Notes: generated from the letters alone by a model not told the origin. A DNA stretch of 64,000 nt from Candidatus Poseidonia alphae (GCA_002505405.1 DAVD01000012.1:39809-103808), one strand, 5' to 3'; positions 10,430 to 56,414 are shown, numbered from the stretch's first letter. Numbers and translations are program-made.

Positions 10430-11331
10430 TCTTCTTCATCTCCTTTAGGGTGAAACATCACGGTTGAACCGGCTTGAACAAATGCGCCCTTCGGCTGAGA
10501 AGAATCCTTTGATTCGGCGGAAATAAGGTCGCAGGAGAAACGGTTTGCTGGGACTCGAACGTCCACTCGTGAGCCGAGGCGTATCATTCCGATGCGTTGA
10601 CCGCGTCGGACGGGCGCGCCCTCTCCGACCCAAGGGATGACCGTCCGTGCTAATGCCCCAGATATCTGCGTCATCTCAATCAACGTATCATCCTCTAAGC
10701 GGTACACGGAACGAACCCGTTCATTGTATTGACTCTCTTTTTTGAAGGCAAAGGCGAAAGGTCCGCGCTTCAGGCCTTTTCCCGTGCGATGTTCCAGGCG
10801 CTCCAAGGTACCTTTCGCTGGAGCGCGATTCACGTGGACATCAAGAGGCGACATGAACACGGCTACTCTAATCACGTCCAAGTCGTGTTCTTCGCCTTTT
10901 TCCACAGCCTCATACCGCTGTTCCGTAGAAAAGGTCAGCGGTTCTTGAAGGGGTTCGGGATACCAATCTCCGGTGAGTGAATCGGACTCAATCGGTCCTT
11001 GTTCGCGTTCAGCCTTAGAAGGTCGGCGTCCTGTTGCTCGCTCTCTGCGGACAAACATAACGTGCCCGTCGGCTGGAGAGACCAAGACCCCTTCTTCCTT
11101 GGGTATCGGTCGGTCAGGGTCGCGCCAGAAATTGACGAGAAAAGCTGCAAACATCAGGCATGAGATTCCAAAAAGAGGGACCAGCCCAAGAATTGGGTCG
11201 ATGAACGCCCCTACAAACAGAGCGCTTACGCCCATTGCAGTCATCATGAATACCGGGCCGTGGCCGCCGTGGGCCAAACCAGCCATGTCAACACCTACTG
11301 TCCAGACCAGGGGTCTTCGCCATCGCCCCAA
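10426..11331 (-). CDS. Phosphatidylserine decarboxylase-related proenzyme (archaetidylserine decarboxylase-like)
   Basis: C-terminal RGQRIGMIRLGSRVDV resembles the PSD G-S-(S/T) self-cleavage region. N-terminal TM helices. 4-nt overlap with the downstream hydrolase gene. Confidence 0.5.
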   Translation of the reverse strand: MGRWRRPLVWTVGVDMAGLAHGGHGPVFMMTAMGVSALFVGAFIDPILGLVPLFGISCLMFAAFLVNFWRDPDRPIPKEEGVLVSPADGHVMFVRRERATGRRPSKAEREQGPIESDSLTGDWYPEPLQEPLTFSTEQRYEAVEKGEEHDLDVIRVAVFMSPLDVHVNRAPAKGTLERLEHRTGKGLKRGPFAFAFKKESQYNERVRSVYRLEDDTLIEMTQISGALARTVIPWVGEGAPVRRGQRIGMIRLGSRVDVRVPANRFSCDLISAESKDSSQPKGAFVQAGSTVMFHPKGDEEE

Positions 11332-12110
11332 GATGCCGCTGGAGCAGCCTCAGTAGATTCGTCCTCTTCTGCAGCCTCTTCTTCGGGGGCTTCCTCTTCA
11401 GGAGATTCTTCTGGTGCTGGCTCAACAACTTCAATCGATGATGTTGCTTCGCTCGCTGCTTCTGCTTCCGCCTCTTGGGTGGCCATTTCCTCGGTTCGCG
11501 CTTGGACCATTTCGTCCATGCGGTCGTTGAACGCTCTCGACATGTGTTGGGACTTGCGCTCGGTCTCAACGGCACGCTCAATCATTTCATAGCGTTCTTT
11601 GATGGCCTTGTTCAAGTCTTCAAAGATTTGCATGTGAGCAACATACCAGTCGTCACGAGATTTCATTTCAGTAACAGCAAGACGCAGATCGTTGTCAAGT
11701 TCTTCTGCAATGCCGAACACCTTGCCCAAGCGGTCTTTTTCTCGAGAGTATTTCTCTTCCATCTTGTCAAGTTCAGGTTCCAAGTGTTCAACACGCTTGG
11801 AAGCCTTGGTAGCCTTCATCTCCAATTCTCGAACTCGAACTTCCTTCTGAGAAATGATTGATTCAAGAGATTCTTTATCGATTTCTCGGTCAATGATTTC
11901 CTTTTCTAGAACTTCAATTTCAGCACGTGCGTCAACCAAGTCTTTCTCTTGGGTTTCGTATGCAGCAAACAATTTCTGAAGACGGTCTGTCTCGGTTGCA
12001 AGGGAGTCTTGCAATTGTTGAATTTGTACCTCTGGCGTGATGGTTCCTTCAGTCATCTTCTCACCCGGAGGCAAGCCTCCATTCTCTCCGAGTCCTCTCC
12101 TCCCTATCAA
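11295..12110 (-). CDS. Acidic coiled-coil protein (start probably at internal ATG ~12056)
   Basis: Heptad-rich, Glu/Lys-rich sequence with an extremely acidic C-terminus. No enzymatic motifs. Confidence 0.4.
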   Translation of the reverse strand: MIGRRGLGENGGLPPGEKMTEGTITPEVQIQQLQDSLATETDRLQKLFAAYETQEKDLVDARAEIEVLEKEIIDREIDKESLESIISQKEVRVRELEMKATKASKRVEHLEPELDKMEEKYSREKDRLGKVFGIAEELDNDLRLAVTEMKSRDDWYVAHMQIFEDLNKAIKERYEMIERAVETERKSQHMSRAFNDRMDEMVQARTEEMATQEAEAEAASEATSSIEVVEPAPEESPEEEAPEEEAAEEDESTEAAPAASWGDGEDPWSGQ

Positions 12111-13138: not shown

Positions 13139-13828
13139 GTGATGAATGTTCTTTTCGTCATGGACACCTTCAAAGACAGGGTTCCTCCAACCTCCATCAT
13201 GGACCAAAGGAAAGCGACCGATGTCTTTCATGAGTGGGCTGAAAAAGGCAAGGACATCGGCATGGAAAAAGGCCATGCTGCAAGCGTAGATGTCATGCTA
13301 AATCTTCTTCTTGACAACGTATCAATGCCGTTTTCTGCCGTCGATATTGGTTGTGGAAATGGATGGGTCGTTCGACAACTTTCCAGTCATGAACACTGTA
13401 CCAACGCGTCAGGAGTTGACGGAGCCGTAGCTATGATTGAAAAAGCGAATGGAATCGACCCTAATGGAAGTTATCATCACGGCCAACTTCCTGATTGGAA
13501 ACCCGAGCAACCCGTCGACCTGGTCCACAGCATGGAATGTTTGTACTACCTGCATGACCCGTTGAACTTTCTTCAAATCATACATGATGACTGGATGAGG
13601 GCAGAAGGCAAACTTGTGATTGGGATGGACCATTACGAGGAAAACCCGGCCAGTCATGATTGGCCCAAGTCCCTCAACGTGCACATGACAACCCTCTCGA
13701 TCCAGGCATGGTTGCAAGGAATGAGAGACGCAGGATTTGAGAACGTAAGTGCGATTCAAACCGGAGCGAAGGAAGACTGGGCGGGAACGCTTGTACTGTC
13801 CGGGACTAAGCCTCAGCGTCCTCAATGA
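13139..13828 (+). CDS. Class I SAM-dependent methyltransferase
   Basis: Motif I VDIGCGNGWVV. Confidence 0.55.
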   Translation: MMNVLFVMDTFKDRVPPTSIMDQRKATDVFHEWAEKGKDIGMEKGHAASVDVMLNLLLDNVSMPFSAVDIGCGNGWVVRQLSSHEHCTNASGVDGAVAMIEKANGIDPNGSYHHGQLPDWKPEQPVDLVHSMECLYYLHDPLNFLQIIHDDWMRAEGKLVIGMDHYEENPASHDWPKSLNVHMTTLSIQAWLQGMRDAGFENVSAIQTGAKEDWAGTLVLSGTKPQRPQ

Positions 13829-16800
13829 AGCCGAGCACTTCGCCCTTTGGACCGCAGCGTCGAACATCGCCTTTGTAGTACGGGCAGCCTGCGCAAACGG
13901 TGGAATCTGAATCCAAACGCTCGGGTTCATCACTGCCGTTCGTGAGGTGCATCATGGTGCGCCAGTGGAGATGTTGGTCAAGGTCAGCCTTTGCAAACAC
14001 AAACTCTTCTTCAGTCATTTGTACAATACGTCCGTTTGCACCCAACAGCAGTGATGGCGGAAGTATGCGTCGGCGCTCTTCCTTTGGCTTAAGCTGTTCA
14101 ATCGCTTCAAGAGCGACGGAGTAAAGTGTCAATTGAAGGCGATGTTCGTGGAGAATCTCGGCTTCTGCTTCGGATTGCGGGAACGGGTTCGTGGTTTCAG
14201 GACCGACCGCTTGTAAAACATGGCCTTTCTCTGCAAGAGTTGGGTTAAACGGAGCCATGCATCCTTTGGTTTTCAGGTCAACCACTTGGAGGCATCCTCG
14301 GCCGCCTTCATCAACAAGCGCCAACACCAAGTCAGCACGTCCGTTGAAATCCATATCGACTTGTTCAATGGTTGCTTGCTCAACGGGGCCCTTAGGTGAA
14401 AACCGACTCCGTTTGAACGAATCGACTGAAATCGGATACGAATGGATGAACGGGAGTTCGGTTCGAACCGCTTCAACCCTGAATCCGTGGAGGGATTCTC
14501 CTGCTACCCACTGTCCAAGAAGGCCAGCATCAATGAGCGAACTCAAATGGAGCATGCGTTCCCTCCATTGATATTCTGTACTGTCCTTCCGTTGAGTTTC
14601 ACCGTATCCGAATTCGGCCATGACCCTTCCAACTGTAATTTCAGAGGCAAGCGCCCCTTCGCTGGCATGATGCCAGTCTTGGGGTAACTTCGGAGTACTG
14701 CTCGAGAATTGAAGGGGGTTACGGAGTCCAATCTCTACAATTCGGTGCATCATCAATCCAAATTCAGTCGGCAGAGGCCATCGCTTCTTCTTGGGTTTTG
14801 TGAGCCCCTTTGGAATTGTAAACGGTTCGGATGCCCATCCTTTCATGTGCTCCAACCAATACCTTCGGGGACAAGCGTCTGTAGCATCCAAGTGGTGGGC
14901 TGCGCCTTTGAGCGTCTCTCGCAAAGGTTGGAGCACGACCTCGTTCTTGTCGGCAACCAACGTTGTTGCATCAAGGTGCTCATCGAGCATTCGGAGACGT
15001 TGTTGAGGGGATGGCGGTGTCGGTTGATGAAAGCAATCGGGATGGTGATAGAGCCGGATTCCTGAAACGCCCTCTTCACCCAGAGGATTGTTTTCCAAAA
15101 GGATGGCTGGGTTGAGGGAGACGGGTGCTTTGGAAGAGGTGTATGGAGGGAGTGAATGGGCTCCTGCATCCCCTGGCAAGAGCCACGGGCTGTCTTCATC
15201 ACCAGCACACCAAGACGCACGTCGTAATCCTTCCACCCACATCCGCCCCATGGTCCTCGGGTCGGGTTTTACAGTGAGGGAGAGTTCTCCGGATTCGGTA
15301 TTGAAGGTCGAGGTATCGGTAGGCCTACCGGTGACGATGAGGCGGTCCTTTACACGGGTGAGGGCAACGTAGAATTTTCTTCGCAGTTCCGCCTTGTCCT
15401 GGGCGGTGTTCATTTGACTTGCAAATGCCCAGAGGCCGTCTACAGGGCGAGCGTGAGCATGCCAGGGTTGAATCCTTCCAGCGACAACTTGTGGCGTAAC
15501 CAATACATTGTCTTTTACCGAGGTCGTAACGTCGGCCATACCCGCTGTAAAGATGCCTGAAACAGCCACAACTGGGGCTTGAAGTCCCTTTGCACCGTGA
15601 ATCGTCATGATTTGTACGGCGGCTTTCGTAGGCTTACTGATGGCTTGCGGACCCCTCTTTTCAAGTCCAATCAATTCGTTTAAGCGCCGGTAAATTGCCG
15701 TAACTGAATGGCCTGTTTCATTTCCGATGCTATGAATCATGCCAAGCCATGCCTCTGCATGTTGACGCTGGGAGTCTTCACTGTACGCAACGAGAAGGTC
15801 GGAATGATCGAGCACCGCATCCAACACGTCATAGATAGCCCCCAAAGATGCGAGGTGATGAAGGTGGTTGAGTAAGGCCTCTATCGCATCGTTCGGTGCA
15901 TGTTCAAGAAGAGCATCCCATGCTGTACGCTCTTCAGCGAGACGATAAAAAGCGGCATGAACTTGAGATTCACTCATTCCAACAACAGCGGAGCGGGCCA
16001 ACTCAATGCCCGCTTTCCGAGAATGGGGATGCGCCACAAGTTCCAACACCGCCATCAAGGGCTGAACAACCGGTTGCATAAGCAACAATCCTTGCCGGTC
16101 GGCCATGACGGGAATCCCTCGCGCCCGCAAGCGTTCAAGCAGGTCCGGCAGGTGCCTCCGTGAATTGATCAAAATCATGACGTCCTCCGGGCGGACTTCG
16201 GGTCCGGTCTCTGCGATCTCTTTCCAATCCGCTTCAGATGAATTCCATACGCGGGAACCCTCTCCATTCAGCAACGAATGGAGGCGGGTTGCAAGCAATT
16301 CATGTTCAAGTTGGACATTGGAGGCGTTTGGGTTCTCAAAGGTGTTGAGTGGAATATCAAGGTCATACGAAGCATGTTGAAGCGCTCCTTGTATGGGGAG
16401 AAGCCACTCCAATACCCCTGGCTCTTCACTCGCTCTTGCAGGATGCAAACGCTGGGCTTCAGCATGCCAGTCGCCAGGTAATGCATGATGACGAGGAGAA
16501 AATACTTCGTCGAAGATGTCATTCATCGATTCCATCAAACTTGGCCGAGTACGATGGTTTGAGGTCAAATCAATGTGCCCTTCCTGTCTCCGCTCAAGCC
16601 GCTCACCCGTGATGGTTGAGGTGGTCTGTCCATCCTCCCATGCATAGGGGACGTAGCTGTGTGGGGCTGAACCTTCCGCATCATGTTCATTGGTGTACGA
16701 GCCTGTTTCCCCTCCGGCCCCAATTGGTCGCGGGTCCCTTCCTTCTCCGTTTTTGCGCAGATGGTTGAGGCTGGTTTCATCGGCTTCAATTCTGTTGCAA

Positions 16801-18746
16801 TCACGCACGGCAGCAACCGCTCGTCGCATGACTGATACCTCTGCTTGTCTGAAGCGATAGATGCTTTGTTTCATGTCACCAACGATGCAAACCGTTGGGT
16901 CCCAATATCCTCTGGGCCTTGGTGGGTCGTCACCATAACGCGCTCTCCGACCCCACAACCGTGCAAGCAATCGGTAGTGTGATGGATTTGTGTCCTGATA
17001 TTCGTCGATGATGAAGGCTCGGAACTGACGTCGCAATTCCCCTAATACCGCAAATCTCCGGTGAAGGTCGTCTTGGAGATCCGGTTGGTCGTTGAGCAGT
17101 GTTAACGCCCGGGAGACGTGTTCATCGCTCCATGGATTGTCGCCTAACCCGTCCAACGCGTCAATCACTTCTGGAGGGTAGCGGTGACGGCAGACATCCG
17201 GACATCGGGCAAGAAGAAGGTCGGCTGCAAAGCGTTGAATGTCATCGAAATCATGCATGCCTTCGAGCGATTTGCGGCGAGCAAGAATTTGATGGCATCC
17301 TCGATGAACCGTGATGAGGTCGCTGAGAATTTCCATTTGTAAATCAGCAGAGACATAGGTCCCTCCTTCAACCGGCGTCGGCCCAATGGAGGGGGGGAGC
17401 GGGACAAGCCGGAGGGGGGAGTCAAGAGGCATTCCATCATAACCGTCCCCGGGGTTGAGTAAGAAAGCGGATTCAGCCAAGAGGCGAATCAAGATGCCCA
17501 GCGGTGAGTGAAGTTCGTTTTTCAGTTCGTCTTGCAAGGCCACGCTTGCGGAAAACAACGCGTCCTTATCGGTCCCTTTCATTCCTTTTACCTTCCCTTT
17601 CGCCAGCAATCCACCATGCCATTTATCCGTTGAGGGGAGATTGTTGCGGGGGAAAAACGTGCATGGGTTTTTGTTGAGTCCTGAAGAACCCGCCATGCCG
17701 ATCATGGCTTTCCACATCCAGACCAATTGGTCCGCAGGCCGGTCGGGAAGCGGGGCACTAACCAAACGGGCAAGATGGTTGAAGCGGGTGAGGACGGTGT
17801 CGTGCTCTTCTTCAATGGGTTCAGCGCATTGTTCTGTATAAGGCAAGAACAGACTGACCCAATTGTGCAAAAGTGGTGCGAAATGATTGATGAAGCCAGG
17901 AAGTTCGGCAGCAATGGGTTGTGCGACCATGTCCAGAAGAAGCGAGACCGGAGCAGGTCCTCGGCCGCTCCATGAGATGCCCAAATCTTGAGCCCGCTGA
18001 ATCATCGAACGGTGAGATTGCTCTACGAAAAGAGATGTGTTGAGAAGTCCATTGAGGACCACTTCCGCAGGCTCTTGCCCTCCCAATCGCGTGACCAGCC
18101 GGTTGCGAGATTGAATGAATTCATGTTGGTGATTGAGCACACCGGCATCCGAGGCATCGTCTGTCGTGCGTATTCGCCAGACAGCATGCATTGTATCGCG
18201 AAGCATGAGCGGTGCTCGTTCTTCGGGAACTTGGTCGCTTGCTGAGTAAAGGGTGACGGTGTCGATGTACGGTCGCACCAACCGGTTGAGGAAGGCGTCA
18301 ATGGTTGAAATTGGAGCCTCATCGAGGCTTGACAAGAGCATTTCAACATCTGCGTCATCTCGGAGTCTCGGGTCAAATATTCCTTCGATATCTTCTTCCT
18401 TAGGAGGTTGAGCACGGCTTTGAGCAAGACGATGGCGTATTCGAGCCTTGAGTTCAGCCGCAGCTTTTCTGGTAAAGGTGATGGCGACGACTTCGGACGG
18501 CAAGAGGCCGTTCCAATCCTCAACCTCTGTGCGTTCCCTCTTCGGAGCGCGTAAGGAGCCGTGCCCGGAAAGTGGGACTCGTGGACCCGGAGGAGTCAGG
18601 TGAGTTGCCCGTTGATCGTGAGCCAACAAATGTTGAACGTAGCGCTCAGCCATGACGGTTGTTTTACCCGTACCCGCTCCTGCGTCTAGGGCAATGTGTT
18701 TGTCCAAATCAAGACCAAGTCGCTGGCTGTTGTTGAAGTCAACCAT
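13806..18746 (-). CDS. AddA-like helicase–nuclease: complete UvrD/PcrA-type SF1 helicase fused to C-terminal RecB-family PD-(D/E)xK nuclease with Cys cluster
   Basis: Helicase motifs in order: I ALDAGAGTGKT, Ia AITFTRKAA, TIDAFL, II IIDEYQDT, III VCIVGDMKQSIYRFRQA, IV LTSNHRTRP, V IMTIHGAKGLQAPVV, VI FYVALTRVKDRL. C-terminal nuclease has GRADLVLALVD (motif II) and VVDLKTKG (motif III), with Cys at GC..., CAGC and ...RRC. Start placed at ATG 18746, which overlaps the upstream stop. Confidence 0.7.
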   Translation of the reverse strand: MVDFNNSQRLGLDLDKHIALDAGAGTGKTTVMAERYVQHLLAHDQRATHLTPPGPRVPLSGHGSLRAPKRERTEVEDWNGLLPSEVVAITFTRKAAAELKARIRHRLAQSRAQPPKEEDIEGIFDPRLRDDADVEMLLSSLDEAPISTIDAFLNRLVRPYIDTVTLYSASDQVPEERAPLMLRDTMHAVWRIRTTDDASDAGVLNHQHEFIQSRNRLVTRLGGQEPAEVVLNGLLNTSLFVEQSHRSMIQRAQDLGISWSGRGPAPVSLLLDMVAQPIAAELPGFINHFAPLLHNWVSLFLPYTEQCAEPIEEEHDTVLTRFNHLARLVSAPLPDRPADQLVWMWKAMIGMAGSSGLNKNPCTFFPRNNLPSTDKWHGGLLAKGKVKGMKGTDKDALFSASVALQDELKNELHSPLGILIRLLAESAFLLNPGDGYDGMPLDSPLRLVPLPPSIGPTPVEGGTYVSADLQMEILSDLITVHRGCHQILARRKSLEGMHDFDDIQRFAADLLLARCPDVCRHRYPPEVIDALDGLGDNPWSDEHVSRALTLLNDQPDLQDDLHRRFAVLGELRRQFRAFIIDEYQDTNPSHYRLLARLWGRRARYGDDPPRPRGYWDPTVCIVGDMKQSIYRFRQAEVSVMRRAVAAVRDCNRIEADETSLNHLRKNGEGRDPRPIGAGGETGSYTNEHDAEGSAPHSYVPYAWEDGQTTSTITGERLERRQEGHIDLTSNHRTRPSLMESMNDIFDEVFSPRHHALPGDWHAEAQRLHPARASEEPGVLEWLLPIQGALQHASYDLDIPLNTFENPNASNVQLEHELLATRLHSLLNGEGSRVWNSSEADWKEIAETGPEVRPEDVMILINSRRHLPDLLERLRARGIPVMADRQGLLLMQPVVQPLMAVLELVAHPHSRKAGIELARSAVVGMSESQVHAAFYRLAEERTAWDALLEHAPNDAIEALLNHLHHLASLGAIYDVLDAVLDHSDLLVAYSEDSQRQHAEAWLGMIHSIGNETGHSVTAIYRRLNELIGLEKRGPQAISKPTKAAVQIMTIHGAKGLQAPVVAVSGIFTAGMADVTTSVKDNVLVTPQVVAGRIQPWHAHARPVDGLWAFASQMNTAQDKAELRRKFYVALTRVKDRLIVTGRPTDTSTFNTESGELSLTVKPDPRTMGRMWVEGLRRASWCAGDEDSPWLLPGDAGAHSLPPYTSSKAPVSLNPAILLENNPLGEEGVSGIRLYHHPDCFHQPTPPSPQQRLRMLDEHLDATTLVADKNEVVLQPLRETLKGAAHHLDATDACPRRYWLEHMKGWASEPFTIPKGLTKPKKKRWPLPTEFGLMMHRIVEIGLRNPLQFSSSTPKLPQDWHHASEGALASEITVGRVMAEFGYGETQRKDSTEYQWRERMLHLSSLIDAGLLGQWVAGESLHGFRVEAVRTELPFIHSYPISVDSFKRSRFSPKGPVEQATIEQVDMDFNGRADLVLALVDEGGRGCLQVVDLKTKGCMAPFNPTLAEKGHVLQAVGPETTNPFPQSEAEAEILHEHRLQLTLYSVALEAIEQLKPKEERRRILPPSLLLGANGRIVQMTEEEFVFAKADLDQHLHWRTMMHLTNGSDEPERLDSDSTVCAGCPYYKGDVRRCGPKGEVLGFIEDAEA

Positions 18747-21700
18747 TAGAATGACCCCCCTGTAAACGACGAGACCGAACACGATTGGCGGAGGACACAG
18801 TAGTTGCAATGTGTGCCCGGCGTTGGATTAACCTGTCCGTCATGAGCCGCCTGCACAGCGCGTTGGGCTGCCTTTAATCGCTCATACATCCATGTCCTGA
18901 ACGGAGAACGGTGGATGCCTTCCCCGTTCAAAGGAAGGAAGTGAAGGGGCAAATGCCCGGTTGCTTGTCCCAAGTGCAATTCCTCTTTCACCGAATCAAT
19001 GTCGGTATCCAATTCAACATAATGAGCAGTGAACTCCCCTATTTCTGTTGCGCCGACACCGATGACGCGGTCACCTGGGTGGGCGACCTCCCAAGCCCTA
19101 GCATACAATGCAAGTTGCAATTCTTCAAACAAGCAGCGAAGATGGCGCAAGCCACGTTGTTTGACCTGTGGGCCGCGAACGGTCTTCAAATCACGAACGA
19201 TGACCAGCCGCCGAGCAGCGTAAGGCGTTCCATCAAGAGGCATTGGAGTTGTCTTCTCACTTGATTCGTCCAATATACCAAGTGCAGTCAATGCCTCACG
19301 TTGCCCTTTATTCAACACCACCACGTCGACGCGATCGGCATAGCCAAACATTTCGAATGACGCTGCAGCCTCGTGTTCGTCGGTTGTATCCAAGGCGATG
19401 CTTGTCCCCTCGGACAAGGTCTTCCATTCACAGGCAATCGGGGCTGAATGTTCTAGCGTCAAATCCGATTGATACATTCTGAAAAGTCTGCCTCCGGGAG
19501 AAATCGGCGTTCCTGTCTCCTGGTAATCGTTCCATTCTGCTGGTGTGGCGTCGATGAGGTCGCGGGTTCGGTGGACAGAAACTGCATTGTATCTGCCCAT
19601 CCATTGTGCATGTTCGTTCAAGTGTTCAAGGATAACGTTCCAACCTGCCCCTACATCTCCCATTGGCCCAAGGTGGAGGGGTTCAATCCGTCCAAGGTCT
19701 GAGCCGCTCACATTGACGCCGTGCCCAGAAAGGAGGGCTCCTTCAACCTCGTGAGCGAGAATTCCGCGAATCCTCAGGTCAACATCCTCAGAGACGCCTT
19801 CATCTTCGCTCTTAGCGTTCAGAAACTGATTCATCCATGCGCTTCGCGGACAATGAAGCCATTTTTCCAGTCGGCTTGGCGACCAAACCTTTCGAACCAG
19901 CGAAGCATCAATTTTGCCGAAGCGGTGGTTGAGTGAAAGCCCTGTTGGCGCGTAGGCGGGAAGAGGACGAGGGTCAACACTTAGCGAGACAACCTTCTCT
20001 TCCTTATGACCGAGATGAGGCCACTGTGCTGCGCTAACTCCGGGGGCTTTGACTGAAGCGTGCTCTGGGCGCAACCTCACTGCATCAATTCCAAGGAGGT
20101 GGGTGCGGTGGCTCCAAGAGAGCGACGACCCCTCGGTGAGCCCTCTCAACGAGGGTTGTCTCTGCTTACGATCACTCTGAATCACGCCCTCAAAGGAATG
20201 AGTCAGTGTTGGGCGATGGTTGAGTTGTTCGCGGGGTTGGATGGACTCTTTGAGGTCCATACCCAACTGCTGGCGAGCATCCCTTGGAAGGTGCCCGTGA
20301 CGAATCAATCGCTTTGTTCCTGCTTCTTCTGCTGTCCAAGAGGAGACGGGCGTCAACCAACTTCCCTGTCCGAGTTCTCGCGAAACCCACTCCCAATGGC
20401 GTAAGCCCGATGTTCCTTGGTAAGTGTCAGGTGGCAAGAATTCGGGAGCTGGTCGCATAGCATCCCACTCCCCTGAACGTCGCACGTCCGACAACCATTC
20501 GGCGTAAGGAGCGCTTGGGCCGCCCCCATCTTCAGGGCTTGAATCAAACATGACAATACGAGGGGCTGCATTGAGGAGATGCCGAAGGTGGTGACGTCCT
20601 TGCCGAATCAGCAAGTCCGTTTGGAACATTCCAAGTTCAAGTTGGGCTTTGGCATCCAACCAAGGTACAACGGATGTTTTCATGGGCCAGGCGTCAACAT
20701 CAAGGCCTGCAAAGATGATCAAATCAGCTTCGAGCCCCAATGCCTCTTTTGGCGTAAGTACCTCGATGTCTGCTGTTTTCATCTTGGTTTGAGACAGTGT
20801 GGTGACCTGCCCTACATACGTGAGGAGGTCAATAAAGTCCATTCCATCAAAGGTGATGCTTTGTACTCTGACCATTGAAGATTGAATCTTTTGAATGGAT
20901 TCTAAGATAGCGTGGAAGGTACCTAGGCTGCGATTGTAGGGGGATTGCCGGTGTTCTAAGGCCTCAAAATCCAACCATTTGACGAACTGTGTCATCCATG
21001 CGGGCCCATTTTTTGGTGCTGGCGGGAGGGGGAGGAACTCACCGGTGCTGCACCCCTCTACATCGTACCGTAACATGTGCACGTCTTCTCCCATGAGCAA
21101 CGGCTTCCACGCATGAAGCATGCATGAAAGCCACCATTGGGTTTCCTCAAGGTCTTGCCTTCGTTGCTCTGGATTGCGTTCTGTAGCTGATGGTTTGGCT
21201 CGTGAAAGAGCGCCTACCCATCTTGAAATCGCACCTGGCCCACCGAGGACATGAAATTGTTGGGCAATACTTTGGAGTGCTTCTTGGTGAGGCCGAGGTC
21301 GCCATTCTTCCTGCGTTGGATGAACGAGTTCGGGGAACATATCTTCCTTGAGAGGAAGAGACGTTGAGTCCATAACGGAGTGAAGAGCGTTCATCCCCCA
21401 CGCACTCATACCTTGAGACAAGCGGGATGCTTGTAGGAGAGCGTGGAACAGCGGTTGGTCTTCCAACAACTCAGTGTTCGAATTCCATTGAATGCCAAGT
21501 GAGCCGAGTGACTGCGTCCAAAGGTGCTGTCGGTCTCGGACAGAGCCGTCAATGACCAGTATTCGTCCTTGAGAAGAACTACGGAAGTGCTTGATCAGTT
21601 CAATTGTAGAATTGAGAATATGGTCGCGTTCGTCGACCGTTACTCTGGTAAATTGGGTGTTTTTAGAACGACCAACATTGGACCTCCAGGAAGGGTGCGC

Positions 21701-22477
21701 CTCACTCCATACTTCGTGGGGCGGGACCCATGATGGGAGCGTTTCCTGTGTGCATGGATACTCGTCGACGAGAAATGCTCCATGGAATCCCAGGCGGAAC
21801 GAACCAGGGTTGAGCAACTGATGAATGGGGGTGAAGCGTGAAAGAGAACACAGAATTGCCCGTTCTATTTCTGTAAAGTCTGGAGCGTGGTCAAGGATAA
21901 GAATGCCTTCAATATGGGAAAAATGAAACGGGGCTGACTTAGCTGAATTGAGCGCGCTAAGGACGTGTTTTGGAAGTAAAACGGGGAGCGTTCCCCCGCG
22001 CTCCTTTTCAAAGGCAAGCAGGATGTTTTCATAGGTCTCAAGACCTGGGTTATTCTCCCAATTGAACGGGTCGAGAAGGGGACTCAAATGCGCATGAAGA
22101 CGTTCCAATCGTTGTGTTTTCTTCATGCCCCAAGATCCGTGTTCACCGCTATGAAGGAGGGGGAATTTGTAATTCTCACCTGCATCCATGCACTTGCTGT
22201 GAATGCCCATGAAAGAGGATGCTTCGTCGTCAAGAAGGACCGGAAGCCGGAAATCTACGTGCAGCAAGCGAAGAAGTTGATTCATCGTGACGTGTTCTTG
22301 AGGTTGTGCAGCGACGCCCCGTTCGCCAAGTGCATTGAGGGTGGACTTACGGTGTTGCTCTGTTGGATGTACGACCATAATATTGGATTCCGTCGATGCC
22401 GAAAGTCCATCAATCAGCCAATCGGGCAAACCTTGACCAGGGGGGGTGTACTCCGATGTGATGGTATAATCTTCCAC
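18746..22477 (-). CDS. AddB-like subunit: degenerate helicase-like region plus C-terminal RecB-family nuclease with CxxCx5C Fe–S motif
   Basis: No intact Walker A. C-terminal GYADRVDVVVLNK (nuclease motif II), LVIVRDLKTVRG (motif III) and terminal CNYCVLRQSC (Cx2Cx5C, as in AddB/Cas4). The stop TAA overlaps the ATG of the downstream helicase gene (TAATG). Confidence 0.55.
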   Translation of the reverse strand: MEDYTITSEYTPPGQGLPDWLIDGLSASTESNIMVVHPTEQHRKSTLNALGERGVAAQPQEHVTMNQLLRLLHVDFRLPVLLDDEASSFMGIHSKCMDAGENYKFPLLHSGEHGSWGMKKTQRLERLHAHLSPLLDPFNWENNPGLETYENILLAFEKERGGTLPVLLPKHVLSALNSAKSAPFHFSHIEGILILDHAPDFTEIERAILCSLSRFTPIHQLLNPGSFRLGFHGAFLVDEYPCTQETLPSWVPPHEVWSEAHPSWRSNVGRSKNTQFTRVTVDERDHILNSTIELIKHFRSSSQGRILVIDGSVRDRQHLWTQSLGSLGIQWNSNTELLEDQPLFHALLQASRLSQGMSAWGMNALHSVMDSTSLPLKEDMFPELVHPTQEEWRPRPHQEALQSIAQQFHVLGGPGAISRWVGALSRAKPSATERNPEQRRQDLEETQWWLSCMLHAWKPLLMGEDVHMLRYDVEGCSTGEFLPLPPAPKNGPAWMTQFVKWLDFEALEHRQSPYNRSLGTFHAILESIQKIQSSMVRVQSITFDGMDFIDLLTYVGQVTTLSQTKMKTADIEVLTPKEALGLEADLIIFAGLDVDAWPMKTSVVPWLDAKAQLELGMFQTDLLIRQGRHHLRHLLNAAPRIVMFDSSPEDGGGPSAPYAEWLSDVRRSGEWDAMRPAPEFLPPDTYQGTSGLRHWEWVSRELGQGSWLTPVSSWTAEEAGTKRLIRHGHLPRDARQQLGMDLKESIQPREQLNHRPTLTHSFEGVIQSDRKQRQPSLRGLTEGSSLSWSHRTHLLGIDAVRLRPEHASVKAPGVSAAQWPHLGHKEEKVVSLSVDPRPLPAYAPTGLSLNHRFGKIDASLVRKVWSPSRLEKWLHCPRSAWMNQFLNAKSEDEGVSEDVDLRIRGILAHEVEGALLSGHGVNVSGSDLGRIEPLHLGPMGDVGAGWNVILEHLNEHAQWMGRYNAVSVHRTRDLIDATPAEWNDYQETGTPISPGGRLFRMYQSDLTLEHSAPIACEWKTLSEGTSIALDTTDEHEAAASFEMFGYADRVDVVVLNKGQREALTALGILDESSEKTTPMPLDGTPYAARRLVIVRDLKTVRGPQVKQRGLRHLRCLFEELQLALYARAWEVAHPGDRVIGVGATEIGEFTAHYVELDTDIDSVKEELHLGQATGHLPLHFLPLNGEGIHRSPFRTWMYERLKAAQRAVQAAHDGQVNPTPGTHCNYCVLRQSCSVSSFTGGSF

Positions 22478-22816
22478 TACCTATCCCCCGCTGAGAAGGT
22501 GTTGGTGACCCTTATTGAAGGTGGCGAGAAGAAATCTACGGGCGCCCTAGAAAATGATTGCGTCTTGAGCCGTTCATGTTATATCTTTGAACCCCAGGCG
22601 GTCATGTAGCAGTTTCCAGCACGAGAAGCGCATGCAGTTCATTTGAGTGTGCTGAGGGCGGTTTTGGTTCCGCCTTTGGGGTAAAAGCACCGGTAGTTTT
22701 ATATAGTGCTTGTAGCAATAAGAATATGTCATGATTGTAGGGGGCGCGATTGGAGAGCGGAATAAACCCGTTCTTTATAACCCCTTAACGACATGTATTA
22801 GAGGAAGTGAGCGAAA
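22478..22816. promoter_or_regulatory. Divergent intergenic control region between the AddB-like gene and the TFB-like gene, with TATA-like elements
   Basis: AT-rich elements ttttatata (~22696) and ttctttataa (~22772, about 40 nt upstream of the + strand ATG). No long ORF with coding character. Confidence 0.35.
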
Positions 22817-23968
22817 ATGAGCGATAATATGGAATGTGAAGACTGCTGTGGAATGAATTTTACGATTGACCAAGCTCGAGCAGAGCGTGTTTGCGATGGT
22901 TGTGGCCTGGTTGACCCACACTACACCACCGATGCTGATACCAACAGTTCAATTGGGCTGGGTGACACACGACAAACTGAATCCTTGGATGTCTTCGCGA
23001 ACAATCCAAACGCAGCACAAGGTGGCCGGATGAATCCTTTTGGAGATCGCACCGATTACTCAGGGAGCCGTCTTTCTCCGTCTCAACGTCGTAGATTTAT
23101 TCGTTTGAGCCGTGCTGACCGCTCGAGTCAGCGTGAAAAGGACCCTATGTGCCGCGAGGTGAAGCTGACTCTGTGTCGCATGTTCGGCGACAGTGTTGCT
23201 CGCGCCACCACTCATTTGGCCGATGCCGCATGCCGAAAATTGTCTCCTGAACAAGAAGCTGTTCGAAAGACCCTTACCTCTGGGGAGCGTGCCGCTTTGA
23301 GCTGCCCTAAGACCTCCATCACACGAAAGGAAGTGGGAATTCGTGGTGAAAGCCACCAAGACAACCTCCAAATCATAGCACTGGCCATCGCTGTGCTCTC
23401 CCACGAGTGGCTCAATACCCCTGCTTTCAACCATCAAATTGTCATGGCCGAATATGGTATTTCCGAGTCTCAATTCAAAAACGCAAAGTCCACCATAAGC
23501 AAATCCTACAAAGCACGATGTCGCAGAGGATGGGCTGCCATACCCCGTGTAATGGCTCGAGGGGCTCTTCGTGCTGACCAACTTGACATCGTCGCAGAGA
23601 ACCTTGACCGCGCCCTCTCCCAGCGGCTTGCGCCAAGTGAACTTGAGGTCGTGGCTGAGCTGTTCTGGAACACCATGACCGACTTGAACGAGCCTACTGC
23701 TGAAGGCCCGCTGGCCAATGTAGCCATGGGTTATGTGGCCGGGTGTGCCATGTACGCAGCGCTTGACCTCGTCGGTTTGAGTCATGGAAACTTGGGCCGA
23801 GTAGCTGAGGCTGTAGAACTCTCCCCCGCCGGCTTGACCAACCGCCTCAAGAGCATCCAGGCTGAAGTGAATGCTGGACAGCTGCCTGAAGCACGTCGCA
23901 TGTTTGTTCTCGATGAAGTTGATGGCGACTCTGGGCCATCCGGTGCAGAAGAACGCGCAGAAGAATGA
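22817..23968 (+). CDS. Divergent TFB-like transcription factor (TFIIB-type Zn ribbon plus degenerate cyclin-like repeats)
   Basis: N-terminal CEDCCG...CDGCG Zn ribbon. The later segments THLADAACRKL and VAMGYVAGCAMYAAL resemble cyclin-repeat AAALYxACR helices. The C-terminal LTNRLKSIQAEV resembles TFB's TIRNRYKEL. The linker is much longer than in canonical TFB. Confidence 0.5.
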   Translation: MSDNMECEDCCGMNFTIDQARAERVCDGCGLVDPHYTTDADTNSSIGLGDTRQTESLDVFANNPNAAQGGRMNPFGDRTDYSGSRLSPSQRRRFIRLSRADRSSQREKDPMCREVKLTLCRMFGDSVARATTHLADAACRKLSPEQEAVRKTLTSGERAALSCPKTSITRKEVGIRGESHQDNLQIIALAIAVLSHEWLNTPAFNHQIVMAEYGISESQFKNAKSTISKSYKARCRRGWAAIPRVMARGALRADQLDIVAENLDRALSQRLAPSELEVVAELFWNTMTDLNEPTAEGPLANVAMGYVAGCAMYAALDLVGLSHGNLGRVAEAVELSPAGLTNRLKSIQAEVNAGQLPEARRMFVLDEVDGDSGPSGAEERAEE

Positions 23969-24014
23969 ACCATTTGGAAGACGGGTTCATATCTCCTCCC
24001 TCGTTGGACAATCC

Positions 24015-24932
24015 ATGCGCCCCGCTCTCACCGTGTTTGCCTCGTTGATGTTTTTCGCATTGTTCGCCCCTGTTGCACCAGCACTACCTGCTGAATCTCT
24101 CGACAAGGGAATGATGTTTGGCGGCCAATGGTCTGATGTGAACAACACCACGACGGATCTCTCAAATCTTACCGACCTGCCTGCTGTCGTCGAAGTTTAT
24201 ACAGCCACCTGGTGTGAAAACTGCGTTGACGTTGAGCACGCATTGGACGAAGTCCAGGAAGCTGGTTTGTTGGAACAGTACCACATTCATCGAGCAATCG
24301 GAGAAACTCAGGACCCGTTTGGAAGTGAAGCCATAGATGCTCGTTGGAATTCTAAATACGGCCAAAACGCCCCTCCTGCCGTGGTATTCAACGGTTCCAT
24401 GAAGAAATTAGGCAGTGTTGCCGATGAGGCAACGTTGGTTGATGAATTCACTGGTTTAGCAAACACTGACTTAGCATTGGGTGCTGGTTCAACAAGTTTT
24501 GGTTGGACTCCTACCACCGACAGTTCTGGAACGGTCACTTGGAACCTCGACATCGATGCTGATCATCTTGAAAATTCAACGCTCAATGTTACGGCTTGGA
24601 TCGTAGAAGCAGGTGCAGAGTTTGAAGAAGGTTCTAACGGACTGGGAACCTATCCCCACATCGTGCTTGACATCGTCTCCTTAGGAAATGAACTCCAGGG
24701 AAGCGTTGCAATACAGATTCCGGAAGCAAACGACGGTGATGACCTCCAAGTCCACCTCATCTACGAAATCATACCCTTGGTTGAAGAGCCAACGGATGAT
24801 GTGAAAGTTGAAGACTCGGACGATTCGGAATCCGTACCGTTTCTAACCGGATTGACCACAGTCACTGTCCTCTTGGGAGCCGCTTGGGCACACGGCGGCA
24901 ACGTTAACCAAAAAGGTCGCCAAGACCAGTGA
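24015..24932 (+). CDS. Secreted thioredoxin-fold protein with C-terminal membrane anchor
   Basis: Signal peptide MRPALTVFASLMFFALFAPVAPA, CxxC motif TWCENC and a C-terminal hydrophobic LTTVTVLLGAAWA. Confidence 0.45.
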   Translation: MRPALTVFASLMFFALFAPVAPALPAESLDKGMMFGGQWSDVNNTTTDLSNLTDLPAVVEVYTATWCENCVDVEHALDEVQEAGLLEQYHIHRAIGETQDPFGSEAIDARWNSKYGQNAPPAVVFNGSMKKLGSVADEATLVDEFTGLANTDLALGAGSTSFGWTPTTDSSGTVTWNLDIDADHLENSTLNVTAWIVEAGAEFEEGSNGLGTYPHIVLDIVSLGNELQGSVAIQIPEANDGDDLQVHLIYEIIPLVEEPTDDVKVEDSDDSESVPFLTGLTTVTVLLGAAWAHGGNVNQKGRQDQ

Positions 24933-27273
24933 GTTCAGTGAATTCTTTTTGTTTTCGGGGCTCATCGGTCAAGTCTTCATGCAACTGCCAGGGATAACGC
25001 TCAACCGTATCAGGGGCACGCTCCACATTGGCATAATTCCACCATCGAGGAGGGGCTCCCCGGACGCCTTGTCGGCGTTGACTTTCTCCAAGGAGGTCAG
25101 TAAGACGGAGGCGAGCATTCGGGCGTGGATGATCCCGACGAATGTAGTGAGTATGGTTTGGCCCCTCGAGATCTTTGACATAGCCAAGAATTGATGCAAT
25201 TTGTCGCACGAAACGGCGCTCTACCGTATTGCGCAGTGTCACCTTAAGGTCCACGTTTCCGAATTCAAGAGCAGCACCGTATTTGGCAGGGATTAGGAAA
25301 TCTGAGCCCAGAGGTTGAGATGTCAAAACGCTCCAAATTCGGGAATATACTTCACACCAACGCCGTTCACCGTCGCGTATATCTCCAATCTGGTGGACAT
25401 CGTCTCTTCTCCTCGGCATAACCGCATGACGCCGATGATGAATCTGTCTTCGGAAGTCACCGTATCTGAAGGCTCGCTCTTCTGCGGATGAGCGATGTAC
25501 CGCATGAGCTCGGTAAGGTTTGACGCCTCCTGCCCATCGCTGAATCACGTTATGAATTGGAAACGTTCCGGACTCCTCAAAATGTTCTTGGAAAATCTCG
25601 TTCCATTCGGTGTTCCGGCGTTCACTGATTCGTTCACCGTGACGGAATTGACGTTGCAGAAGGCCGCGAAAGCCTCGGTTCCCTCGCTCCGGTTCAGGCT
25701 CATAACGGCCTCGAAGCTCGTACCATGGATCAGCGACATAATTGTGATGGTGGTAGGTCAATTCTTTGAGGGCCTCTTGGTCAAGAACAGCAATCCATTC
25801 CCTTGGAACTGGCCGTAGAAAACCAAACGGAGGACGGTTGCGTATCAAATCATTCAAGCTGTCAATGTTGAGGGTTGCAGTGGTATCATTGTACATTGAG
25901 AGCACTACAGAACCCATGGTATCTCCGAGAGGGACCGTGGAATGATAGTGGCCGTTGTGAATGCAAATCGCATCTTTGTGCTCTCGACCAAATCCGCTGA
26001 GGTGGGAGATTAGATACGGCGCGCTGTGTTGCCCCCTTGTCACATTGACCTCGTAGCAATGCCCTAATTTTCCAACCACAAGAACCGTTGCGTTCTTGAC
26101 ATACACTCGGTCGGTAAGCCCGTTGAGGATTCCATGACAAAATTCCAGAGAACGGACCATTTGGTCGGTCGGAGCATCGGTTTTGAGGTAAGCTTGTGAC
26201 CAATTGTGCTGCAAGCCCAGAAGAATCTTTCCTGCATCGGAATTCAACGGCGATAGCGCAAGTGAGACGAGAATCGCCAAGTGTACCGGTTGACGGGGAA
26301 TTTGAACGAGGCGGGTCCGGCCAACTTGACTGCGGACGCGAAGCGAAATGTGCTTTTCTGAAACTCGCAGTGGCCAATCGAGGGTGTTCGCTGGAATTTT
26401 GAACTCTTTCGGGTCCCTCCAGTGCCTCATCCATGGCGTATCATAACAGTCAAACAAACCCCGAGGGTGGTTTGAAAATGCTTTGCGGAGGTCTTGCATG
26501 TTGGTTCGACCTCCGTTTCGGATCAGTTCGGTTCGAACATCGTAAGCCCAGGAGATGAAGCCAGCTTTTCCAGACACTCCTGTTTCTTTGAGCCGGTCAA
26601 TCTTGACCTTGGTGGAAAGCCAAGCAAGCATTGAGGCCATCGGGCGAGAATTAGAATCACCGTTCGCAAAAACATAATTCAATGCACGAATTTCACGATG
26701 GTCCTGATTCCTGTTTGCGGCCGGCGTAGCGCAAGAAAGGCCTACGATGAGTTTCGCGAGATCCCATCCGCTCCGGAGTTTTTTATCGGTCATGATGGGG
26801 AAAAATGAGCGAAGACTGATGACGGATGGAAGTTCTACATCATCCAAATATTGGCGGCCGTCCATGATTCGAAAACACGAGCCATCTTGGAATTCAATTC
26901 CCTGAGCCAACCATCTGATTTGGGAGTTTGACAACACATGACCGTTAACGAGGGCATCTCCCAGTTCTTGAAACTCAGCCTCACTGCAGGGAAGATCGGC
27001 AATTGGTTCCATTGCTTCATGTTCTAATTTAGCCCAATTCGCATGCTCACCATCCCCCAGTGAATGAGCCAGTCGTTTCCAGCGACCTGAGGCGTGAACG
27101 GATGGCCCTCCGAACAACGCAATAGCACGTTCATGATCGGTTGGAGTAAGGGGGACAGACCATCCCTCCCGAGGATTGAAGTCGATCATTGATTGACACC
27201 AATCGCAGACAATTTCCGCCTCGTTTGAGTCCAGATTATACTTGCAGTCAATGTAAGAAGAGTGCGAACTCAT
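24904..27273 (-). CDS. Large Arg/His/Trp-rich protein of unknown function (N-terminal CxxC; no recognisable catalytic motifs)
   Basis: About 790 aa from ATG 27273 (the track's 27315 start is TTG). The composition is basic, unlike neighbouring acidic proteins. N-terminal CDWCQS. No P-loop. It lies 38 nt downstream of the ltaE stop on the same strand. Confidence 0.5.
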   Translation of the reverse strand: MSSHSSYIDCKYNLDSNEAEIVCDWCQSMIDFNPREGWSVPLTPTDHERAIALFGGPSVHASGRWKRLAHSLGDGEHANWAKLEHEAMEPIADLPCSEAEFQELGDALVNGHVLSNSQIRWLAQGIEFQDGSCFRIMDGRQYLDDVELPSVISLRSFFPIMTDKKLRSGWDLAKLIVGLSCATPAANRNQDHREIRALNYVFANGDSNSRPMASMLAWLSTKVKIDRLKETGVSGKAGFISWAYDVRTELIRNGGRTNMQDLRKAFSNHPRGLFDCYDTPWMRHWRDPKEFKIPANTLDWPLRVSEKHISLRVRSQVGRTRLVQIPRQPVHLAILVSLALSPLNSDAGKILLGLQHNWSQAYLKTDAPTDQMVRSLEFCHGILNGLTDRVYVKNATVLVVGKLGHCYEVNVTRGQHSAPYLISHLSGFGREHKDAICIHNGHYHSTVPLGDTMGSVVLSMYNDTTATLNIDSLNDLIRNRPPFGFLRPVPREWIAVLDQEALKELTYHHHNYVADPWYELRGRYEPEPERGNRGFRGLLQRQFRHGERISERRNTEWNEIFQEHFEESGTFPIHNVIQRWAGGVKPYRAHAVHRSSAEERAFRYGDFRRQIHHRRHAVMPRRRDDVHQIGDIRDGERRWCEVYSRIWSVLTSQPLGSDFLIPAKYGAALEFGNVDLKVTLRNTVERRFVRQIASILGYVKDLEGPNHTHYIRRDHPRPNARLRLTDLLGESQRRQGVRGAPPRWWNYANVERAPDTVERYPWQLHEDLTDEPRKQKEFTELTGLGDLFG

Positions 27274-27311
27274 GCCTAAGAAAAATGCCGACCTGTTATG
27301 AAGTCCGCACC

Positions 27312-28355
27312 TCAAAAGATGCGCTTACAAAGATCGATAAAACGCTCAATGTCTTCATCCGTGATGTGCAAATGTACGACAATACGGATGTGCGTTGGAG
27401 ACACATCAAACACATCAACGCCGTTGTTTTGCAGTTCAAGAGCGACCTCATTCGCTGGCCTGAGGCATTGGACATAGACCATGTTGGTTTGTACCGTTTC
27501 CATGTCAACGGAAAAGGAATCCATTGAATCAAGTGCTTGAGCAATGGTTGTTGCACGGTGATGGTCTTCTTCCAGCCGGAGTACGTGATGGTCAAGGGCG
27601 TGCATGCCAGCGGCTGCGAGCATGCCTGCTTGTCGCCAGCCGCCACCAAACAATTTGCGCCATCGATGTGCTCGAGTGATGAAGGCTGTTGTGCCCACCA
27701 AGACCGACCCCACAGGAGCACCGAGGCCTTTGGAAAGACAAATTGATACTGAGTCGTAATGTTTGCACATGGTTGCTACATCAACACCTGTGGCGATTGC
27801 CGCATTGAAAATACGTGCACCATCAATATGGGTTTTACAATCGTTCGCTTTGGCAACTGCAGCGATTTGGTCAAAGATCTCTTGGTCGTAACATGAGCCG
27901 CCACCAAGGTTGGTCGTGTTCTCAATGCAAACCAAACTGCCGTTTGGATAGTGACCGCCGGAACCTTCAGATTTTCGTATAGCCTTCTGAACTTGCTCTG
28001 GAGTCATCAGGCTCTTCTCTCCATCGACCAGGGCAATAGATGCCCCACAAAGTGCTGCATAACCGCCACCTTCATACCGGTAAATGTGTGCGGTTTTATC
28101 GCAAACGATTTCATCGCCTGGGACGGTATGCGTCCTTAGCGCAATTGCGTTTGACATGGTCCCTGATGGAACGAAAAGAGCGGCTTCCTTGTCAAACATC
28201 TTCGCCACCCGATCTTGAAGGGCAATAACCGTTGGGTCGTCACCTAAGACATCGTCACCAACAGGGGCTGCCATCATGGCTTCCCGCATGGCTTGTGTTG
28301 GTTGAGTCACCGTGTCCGAGCGAAAATCGATGCGGTCTGAGGGATACTCGCGCAT
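27312..28355 (-). CDS. ltaE: Low-specificity L-threonine aldolase (PLP-dependent)
   Basis: N-terminal DFRSDTVTQPT and SGTMSNAIAL are typical of the threonine aldolase family. Confidence 0.8.
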   Translation of the reverse strand: MREYPSDRIDFRSDTVTQPTQAMREAMMAAPVGDDVLGDDPTVIALQDRVAKMFDKEAALFVPSGTMSNAIALRTHTVPGDEIVCDKTAHIYRYEGGGYAALCGASIALVDGEKSLMTPEQVQKAIRKSEGSGGHYPNGSLVCIENTTNLGGGSCYDQEIFDQIAAVAKANDCKTHIDGARIFNAAIATGVDVATMCKHYDSVSICLSKGLGAPVGSVLVGTTAFITRAHRWRKLFGGGWRQAGMLAAAGMHALDHHVLRLEEDHHRATTIAQALDSMDSFSVDMETVQTNMVYVQCLRPANEVALELQNNGVDVFDVSPTHIRIVVHLHITDEDIERFIDLCKRIF

Positions 28356-50788: not shown

Positions 50789-50834
50789 GTTAGAAACGAC
50801 CGGCCCATCCTTTCTAACTGTTCGGTTGAAGTGA

Positions 50835-54176: not shown

Positions 54177-56414
<2,238 letters not shown>

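Follow-up and report, generated by a model that had tools for sequence, protein, structure and literature searches.

A gene pair conserved across the Marine Group II archaea (Poseidoniales) probably encodes a very divergent AddAB-type helicase–nuclease

The stretch of DNA analyzed here (the window) consists of 64,000 nucleotides (nt) assigned to Candidatus Poseidonia alphae (GCA_002505405.1, DAVD01000012.1:39809-103808), and it carries on its minus strand two long, adjoining genes whose products resemble the two subunits of the bacterial helicase–nuclease AddAB. The upstream, AddB-like gene (18746..22477) is an open reading frame (ORF) of 1243 amino acids (aa) with a GTG start; its product combines what appears to be a dead UvrD-like scaffold with a C-terminal RecB/Cas4-type nuclease. 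The downstream, AddA-like gene (13806..18746) encodes 1646 aa that make up a superfamily 1A (SF1A) motor and a C-terminal RecB-type nuclease. Delimited mechanically, the latter ORF would run from 13806 to 18809, but the ATG at 18746..18744 is the biologically sensible start, and independent gene callers arrived at the same 1243-aa and 1646-aa products on identical marine metagenome contigs. All coordinates given below for features of this pair are on the minus strand.

The two genes overlap by a single nucleotide. The minus-strand junction reads GGGGGGTCATTCTAATGGTT and contains TAATG at 18748..18744, so that one A is common to the TAA stop of the AddB-like gene (18748..18746) and the ATG of the AddA-like gene (18746..18744). 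A Shine-Dalgarno-like run of six G residues stands ahead of the AddA-like start (18755..18760), and a putative Shine-Dalgarno element, GGGGGA, lies 7 nt 5' of the AddB-like GTG (22484..22489); both are readings of the sequence. Overlap of stop and start recurs at all 52 loci where it could be scored, either by 1 nt (T[GA]ATG, n = 32) or by 4 nt ([ATG]TGA, n = 20), and at every locus that yielded both genes, deep branches included, the AddB-like gene is followed directly by the AddA-like gene. An earlier note on this DNA had proposed an AddAB-like operon made of these two minus-strand ORFs (13806 to 22477), with TAATG coupling and the B-then-A order of Bacillus addBA. That proposal was sound in each of these respects, and the operon is real; what the note said of a halophilic host, of horizontal acquisition (if taken as a recent event), and of a possible AdnAB-like enzyme was not supported, as discussed below.

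In the AddA-like subunit, an intact SF1A motor is joined to a RecB nuclease. The motor (approximately residues 1 to 1145; 15312..18746) has motifs Q, I, Ia, II, III, IV, V, and VI, including the Q motif at residues 4 to 13, motif I (GAGTGKT; 18657..18686), motif II (DEYQD; 16983..17015), and motif III (16839..16892). The order is canonical (Q, GAGTGKT, DEYQDTN, GDMKQSIYRFRQAE, TIHGAKGL, YVALTRVKDRL, and then the nuclease motifs), with large insertions at approximately residues 170 to 560 and 640 to 720. The Pfam domains of this protein are UvrD-helicase, UvrD_C, and, at the C terminus, PDDEXK_1. Among NCBIfam models, AddA_Gpos scores best (139.3 bits), followed by recB (129 bits) and AddA_alphas (128.8 bits), all above PcrA (79 bits) and UvrD (55 bits). 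When the protein was compared by sequence with the PDB, the best match was Bacillus subtilis AddA (3u44_A, E = 7e-17), with mycobacterial AdnB, UvrD1, and RecB after it. The identification of this subunit as AddA-like is thus upheld (139 bits and 129 bits for the AddA and RecB models versus at most 79 bits for PcrA and UvrD), and the motifs previously listed for the two proteins are all present and translated at the expected coordinates.

The nuclease domain of the AddA-like subunit (approximately residues 1285 to 1646; 13809..14894), delimited from the Pfam match, an AlphaFold2 model, and conservation, carries the motifs GRADL (D1472), D1490-L-K1492, and Q1538xxxY1542. It also has four cysteines, namely, C1292 and a terminal C1618-x2-C1621-x9-C1631 (13854..13895). 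Because a search of the PDB with the sequence of this domain alone returned chance matches only, a structure prediction was needed. The AlphaFold model of residues 1150 to 1646 (predicted local distance difference test [pLDDT] score of 84.8) matched AddA in Foldseek (4cej_A, 9e-8) and also AdnA, AddB, Dna2, ACE1, and Cas4.

The matches to Cas4 and ACE1, along with the Cas4-like pattern of four cysteines, suggest another reading, in which the AddA-like protein belongs to the defense-associated UvrD–Cas4 fusion family (Hudaiberdiev et al. 2017) and the AddB-like protein is an unrelated accessory PD-(D/E)XK nuclease. Fusions of an SF1A motor to a Cas4-like iron-sulfur (Fe-S) nuclease are indeed known from mesophilic archaea (PMC5704561). 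We nevertheless find this reading quite improbable. Members of that family are stand-alone single genes or are tied to type III restriction-modification or Dcm/Vsr genes, none of which is present at the locus, whereas the gene described here has an obligate AddB-fold partner and a housekeeping context. That partner shows the AddB architecture in full, is strictly inherited together with the AddA-like gene, and is coupled to it in translation, and the best scores of the AddA-like protein are those to AddA and RecB models.

We also considered, and rejected, a defense-system helicase in general: PADLOC returned nothing specific, with only generic GajB/UvrD matches of at most 65 bits for the AddA-like protein and none for the AddB-like protein, so that neither subunit was placed in a defense helicase family. 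Gabija was rejected as well, since the similarity of the AddA-like protein to GajB is of the generic UvrD-core kind and scores below AddA, and the partner has no PADLOC match.

In the AddB-like subunit, the nuclease is the more readily recognized part. This domain (approximately residues 860 to 1243; 18749..19900), assigned from motifs and conservation, contains E1017, GYADRVD (D1048 and D1051), D1096-L-K1098, and Q1121xxxY1125, and a C-terminal PDDEXK_1 domain is the only Pfam match of the whole protein. Near its end lies CNYCVLRQSC (C1224-x2-C1227-x5-C1233; 18779..18808), whose cysteines are predicted Fe-S ligands together with C876 (19850..19852) as the predicted fourth. The N-terminal region (approximately residues 1 to 700; 20378..22477) is helicase-like in that its predicted fold matches the AddB, AdnA, UvrD, and RecC cores. 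The protein contains no Walker A, Walker B, or other helicase motif and has no Pfam helicase match, and GxxxxGK[ST] is not conserved across 74 AddB-like orthologues, which, with 69 AddA-like orthologues, were taken from GTDB species-representative genomes and form our conservation set. From the fold matches and the missing motifs, we conclude that, as modeled, the N-terminal two-thirds of the protein is folded like a UvrD helicase but has lost all of the ATPase and helicase motifs. The earlier description of a degenerate ATPase region understated the matter, as not a single ATPase motif remains. One stretch, IEVLTPKEALGLEADLIIFAGLD, has a vestigial resemblance to motifs V/VI and aligns weakly with AddB_alphas; of the curated AddB models, only addB_alphas matches, and it does so partially (26.1 bits, residues 530 to 655). 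An hhalign comparison of the AddB-like and AddA-like profiles aligned the same stretch with motif V of the AddA-like protein, its one match, which was not significant.

An AlphaFold model of residues 44 to 1243 built with 27 family members (pLDDT of 76, predicted template modeling [TM] score [pTM] of 0.51) retrieved five B. subtilis AddB chains ahead of all other structures in Foldseek (E = 2.5e-16 to 2.8e-15, TM score of ~0.4, over the whole length), followed by mycobacterial AdnA (~1e-12) and then by AddA, UvrD, and RecC. In two species representatives, the AddB-like gene is not a single full-length ORF: it is split into two ORFs (923 and 643 aa) at locus L078 (6953-11060) and shortened at locus L074 (6839-10258), for which a frameshift, a misassembly, or an occasional pseudogene might account.

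The rank of AdnA among these matches bears on whether the pair might encode an AdnAB-type enzyme, with two motors and two nucleases. AdnA ranks second among the structural matches of the AddB-like model, AdnB ranks second among the PDB sequence matches of the AddA-like protein, and mycobacterial AdnAB (6PPR, 9NP6) is a heterodimer that has RecB nucleases on both subunits and an Fe-S cluster in the trailing one, AdnA (PMC13000450). AdnA, however, keeps Walker A and Walker B and binds AMPPNP (PMC3321194, PMC13000450), while the AddB-like protein has neither motif across the 74 orthologues and no Pfam helicase match, and AdnAB is restricted to actinomycetes (PMC3321194). As there is no second nucleotide site, the pair is not AdnAB, and the dual-motor option raised by the earlier note becomes highly improbable. 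RecBCD fits no better. It includes RecD, an SF1B motor, and we found no RecD or other third helicase gene in the operon or in the flanks of the pair. The nuclease-like domain of RecC is catalytically inactive, whereas the active site of the AddB-like nuclease is, to judge by its residues, intact. These two differences, the missing RecD and the apparently intact nuclease, lead us to set RecBCD aside.

Conservation of the residues that define both nucleases and the motor is strict. The catalytic residues E1017, D1048, D1051, D1096, K1098, Q1121, and Y1125 of the AddB-like protein are invariant (74/74), as are D1472, D1490, K1492, Q1538, and Y1542 of the AddA-like protein (69/69), and the AddA-like motor residues K28, T29, D581, E582, Q584, R633, and R1131 are likewise present in 69/69. 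The catalytic Asp and Lys residues are therefore in place on alignment in both subunits. The cysteines are kept nearly as well: C876 in 74/74, C1224 and C1227 in 69/74, and C1233 in 65/74 AddB-like proteins, and C1292 in 66/69 and C1618, C1621, and C1631 each in 64 to 69 of 69 AddA-like proteins. The Cys clusters that had been noticed in both nuclease domains are thus quartets conserved in ~70 species, and the layout in the two subunits is the same: a single Cys precedes the nuclease core, and the other three lie at the C terminus. Both patterns are also kept in a deep-branching homologue pair of 72% guanine-plus-cytosine (GC) content. We regard both quartets as being of the Fe-S type and as putative metal ligands; C876 and the terminal motif of the AddB-like subunit show the same Cys pattern as the Fe-S cluster motif of AddB and Cas4 (PMC3321194, PMC5704561). 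Where such systems have been characterized, descriptions of an Fe-S cluster are confined to the subunit that is not the motor, AddB or AdnA (PMC3321194, PMC13000450). The further quartet that the motor subunit carries here is therefore a real difference.

Of the known systems, AddAB of the B. subtilis type (3U44, 4CEH; RexAB) is the one the pair most resembles. There, too, two genes form an operon with B ahead of A; one subunit has an active SF1A motor and ends in a RecB nuclease, and its partner joins a dead UvrD-like fold to an active RecB nuclease with the C…Cx2Cx5C Fe-S motif. The AddB-like model finds its best structural match in this system, and the AddA-like protein its best match by sequence in the PDB. 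The differences are nonetheless considerable. Scores against the curated AddAB models reach only 5 to 20% of the NCBIfam equivalog cutoffs (AddA-like protein, 139.3 versus 707.65 bits for TIGR02785 and 128.8 versus 860.75 bits for TIGR02784; AddB-like protein, 26.1 versus 486.5 bits for TIGR02786). B. subtilis AddB keeps Walker A (PMC3321194), whereas the AddB-like subunit does not. The AddA-like protein is ~400 aa longer than AddA and carries insertions both in the 1B region and between motifs III and IV, and its nuclease adds the four conserved cysteines C1292, C1618, C1621, and C1631, which have not been reported for AddA. The host, finally, is an archaeon, whose recombinase is RadA. For the AddAB of alphaproteobacteria and Bacteroides (TIGR02784/TIGR02786), the scores (129 bits for AddA_alphas, and 26 bits against a 486-bit cutoff for addB_alphas) provide no evidence of a specific relationship. 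The pair thus differs from canonical AddAB in its low scores, the lack of a Walker A motif in the AddB-like subunit, the Fe-S-type cysteines of the motor subunit, and the large insertions, and we regard it as a very divergent variant of AddAB and not as a new kind of system.

The host had been taken for a halophilic archaeon, which proved mistaken. The window does contain archaeal markers (MCM, GatE, Trm1, and RaSEA), but its GC content is ~0.52, its predicted proteome is only mildly acidic (D+E, 0.132; K+R, 0.082), the named homologues and syntenic loci belong to Candidatus Poseidoniales, Poseidoniaceae, Thalassarchaeaceae, or Poseidonia sp., and the identical proteins occur on marine metagenome contigs. 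The host is a member of Poseidonia (Marine Group II [MGII], Poseidoniales), and the nearest locus in GTDB is that of a Poseidonia metagenome-assembled genome (MAG; locus L001), with 92% aa identity.

With one genome scanned per species, the AddB-like gene was found in 388 species genomes. The titles of the best 80 of these 388 read Poseidoniales, Poseidonia, or a broader archaeal name, with one exception described below, and the 80 include the original 2012 MGII assembly CM001443.1. We also searched 1.84 billion cluster representatives exhaustively with an AddB-like profile built from a trimmed alignment and obtained only 538 matches at an E value of ≤1e-3, of which 107 are at ≤1e-30 and ~35 are full length. 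The most divergent full-length matches that bear names are Poseidoniales or Thalassarchaeaceae, and there is no full-length bacterial relative among the best 150 matches. Far more matches would be expected if the profile recognized ordinary bacterial AddB, and we conclude that the family is small, clade restricted, and deeply diverged.

A neighbor-joining tree resolves two main clades, one with the named Poseidoniaceae and one with the named Thalassarchaeaceae, as well as two deeper pairs. One deep pair (GCA_964389655.1; GC content of 0.44) shows the gene order DUF4430 – PTH2 – β-eliminating lyase – B – A – methyltransferase, most of which is shared by the window. The other includes a 3.0-Mb contig of 72% GC (ENA ERZ26167216 ctg495766). 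The loci of this second pair, L083 (8001-16168, on that contig) and L086 (6001-14237), lie in archaeal DNA of 72 to 73% GC; the AddB-like copy there is 27% identical to that of the window and adjoins GatE and PTH2, and at L086 the AddB-like and AddA-like genes are 47 nt apart, with no overlap. Local GC at the loci of the pair tracks that of the host, from 0.39 to 0.73. The gene pair is therefore a conserved core feature of Poseidoniales, present in both families and in deeper branches, and the order-wide spread, shared synteny, and host-tracking GC together indicate an ancient acquisition or origin followed by vertical retention.

These results leave little room for a recent horizontal acquisition from a bacterium (the earlier note had offered horizontal acquisition as one of two explanations) or for a mis-binned bacterial contig. 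AddAB is typically bacterial, and one related contig (locus L022, NZEQ01000040.1) is labeled Verrucomicrobiales bacterium isolate ARS100; this is the exception among the best 80 loci. The window, however, holds the archaeal markers named above, the GC content of the operon (0.52 to 0.54) equals that of the window, the gene occurs with shared synteny in 388 archaeal species genomes, and bacterial full-length relatives are absent from the best 150 matches among the representatives. We consider either version of this explanation scarcely credible, the pair being order-wide, syntenic, and compositionally native, with no close bacterial relative. The L022 contig has an MGII AddB-like gene (51% identity) and an ORF of ~800 aa upstream and is syntenic with MGII loci, so it is probably a mislabeled archaeal contig binned into a bacterial MAG.

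From the operon, motifs, folds, conservation, and taxonomic distribution described above, we think it likely that the two products are the subunits of a heterodimeric AddAB-type helicase–nuclease in this Marine Group II archaeon, most likely a double-strand-end resection enzyme with one motor and two nucleases. Translational coupling and the predicted folds suggest that the products would form a heterodimer like that of B. subtilis AddAB (PMC3321194), and the same analogy supplies the strand assignment, the Fe-S binding, any Chi-like control, and the hand-over to RadA in the following scheme. The complex would bind a double-stranded DNA end, where the single SF1A motor in the 1646-aa AddA-like subunit would hydrolyze ATP and move 3'→5' along one strand, unwinding the duplex. 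The 3'-ended strand would thread through the dead scaffold of the 1243-aa AddB-like subunit and be cut by the AddA-like RecB nuclease, while the displaced 5'-ended strand would be cut by the AddB-like RecB/Cas4-type nuclease. The Cys quartet of the AddB-like subunit most likely carries an Fe-S cluster, which would sit at the fork. The archaeal recombinase RadA would then receive the product, a single-stranded 3' tail.

Several observations weigh against this assignment. The scores to AddAB-type models fall far under the equivalog cutoffs (139 versus 708 bits and 26 versus 487 bits). The AddB-like protein on its own found no match in the PDB (phmmer), and the profile of its family found only a marginal match to Cas4 (4r5q) around the first Cys, with an E value of 0.002. 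The AddB assignment draws on a predicted structure of moderate confidence, as the pLDDT, pTM, and TM values (76, 0.51, and ~0.4) indicate, and confidence is low in the modeled segment with the C-terminal cysteines. No Chi-like oligomer stood out among Markov-corrected 6- to 8-mers in the 64-kb window, a scan that is underpowered at this length. To our knowledge, cooperation of AddAB with RadA has never been demonstrated.

A further question is what such an enzyme would do for the cell. RecBCD and AddAB destroy unprotected linear DNA by virtue of their dual-nuclease, processive-motor design, and the same machine might serve mainly as an exonuclease against viruses and plasmids, degrading linear foreign DNA, and not in recombinational repair. 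Two intact nucleases and a processive-motor architecture would suit this role, as would the lack of an evident Chi-like oligomer in the underpowered scan of the window, and viruses infect Poseidoniales heavily (PMC11706807). Defense genes, however, are usually patchy in distribution, whereas this pair is order-wide, with 388 species genomes; its neighborhood is a conserved one of housekeeping genes and not a variable defense island, and PADLOC has no match for the AddB-like subunit. On balance, we judge a mainly antiviral function unlikely. Repair and defense roles coexist in bacteria, and degradation of foreign DNA would therefore be an added role more than an alternative one: the activity proposed for the AddAB-type enzyme would also degrade unprotected linear foreign DNA, and this may coexist with repair.

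The genes that neighbor the pair are of a housekeeping kind. The 3' ends of the AddA-like gene and of a convergent S-adenosylmethionine (SAM)-methyltransferase gene (13139..13828, plus strand) overlap by 23 nt (13806..13828), and the same convergent methyltransferase gene follows the pair at the deep-branching locus L084/L085. On the other side, most Poseidoniales loci have an ORF of ~800 aa on the same strand, ~2.4 kb upstream of the pair. In the window, this is an 803-aa basic protein (24904..27315, minus strand; isoelectric point of 8.75) with no Pfam or NCBIfam match, and two opposite-strand genes to which no function was assigned (22817..23968 and 23871..24932) lie between it and the pair.

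Elsewhere in the window, a second bacterial-style repair gene (54177..56381, minus strand) encodes a bacterial-type NAD-dependent DNA ligase with LigA adenylation, OB, HhH, and BRCT domains. Three very large and very acidic predicted surface proteins are encoded on the same strand, one with FG-GAP/fn3 domains (40345..44682, 1445 aa), one with a β-helix (57455..62137, 1560 aa), and one with PKD domains (49598..51022, 474 aa). A 271-aa protein (11295..12110, minus strand) is 27% Asp+Glu and has weak coiled-coil similarity to SMC/Rad50. A 664-aa EF-hand protein (5764..7758, minus strand) has a calcium-binding domain that fits the Poseidoniales-specific families (PMC9258230).

The earlier note had called a complete AddAB-type machine in its presumed haloarchaeon unusual, but archaeal addAB genes were noted by Cromie in 2009, according to a sentence in PMC2887965 that cites that work. 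In the library searched, we found no paper that ties MGII or Poseidoniales to AddAB or RecB, and the principal genomics papers on MGII that we read are silent on helicases and nucleases. In public annotations, the products appear as "exonuclease V beta subunit," "UvrD-helicase domain-containing protein," "PD-(D/E)XK nuclease family protein," or "hypothetical."

In the plankton, Marine Group II ranks with the most abundant archaea; its members remain uncultured, and their machinery for DNA repair and recombination is essentially undescribed. An AddAB-type machine that is order-wide and under purifying selection shows that the bacterial solution is encoded in one major lineage of archaea at least, and it raises the question of how an AddAB-type enzyme is coupled to RadA. 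The dual Fe-S-type quartets and the lost ATP site of the AddB-like subunit also provide a natural variant for probing both the Fe-S "wedge" and the nucleotide site of AddB. The finding is relevant, too, to the "overwrite" of proteorhodopsin genes by homologous recombination that has been proposed for Poseidoniales (PMC6461757).

The textbook machinery of archaeal end resection is Mre11–Rad50–HerA–NurA. More tentatively, and with clearly less confidence than we have in the AddAB-type assignment itself, we suggest that the pair represents a distinct and ancient class of end-resection enzyme in Poseidoniales and some deeper relatives, with AddAB architecture, Fe-S clusters in both nucleases, and a nucleotide-free B subunit. 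Such a class might have replaced HerA–NurA or might act alongside it, delivering single-stranded DNA to RadA, possibly under its own Chi-like signal. If this is true, Poseidoniales would be the first archaeal lineage with a bacterial-type core of recombination initiation.

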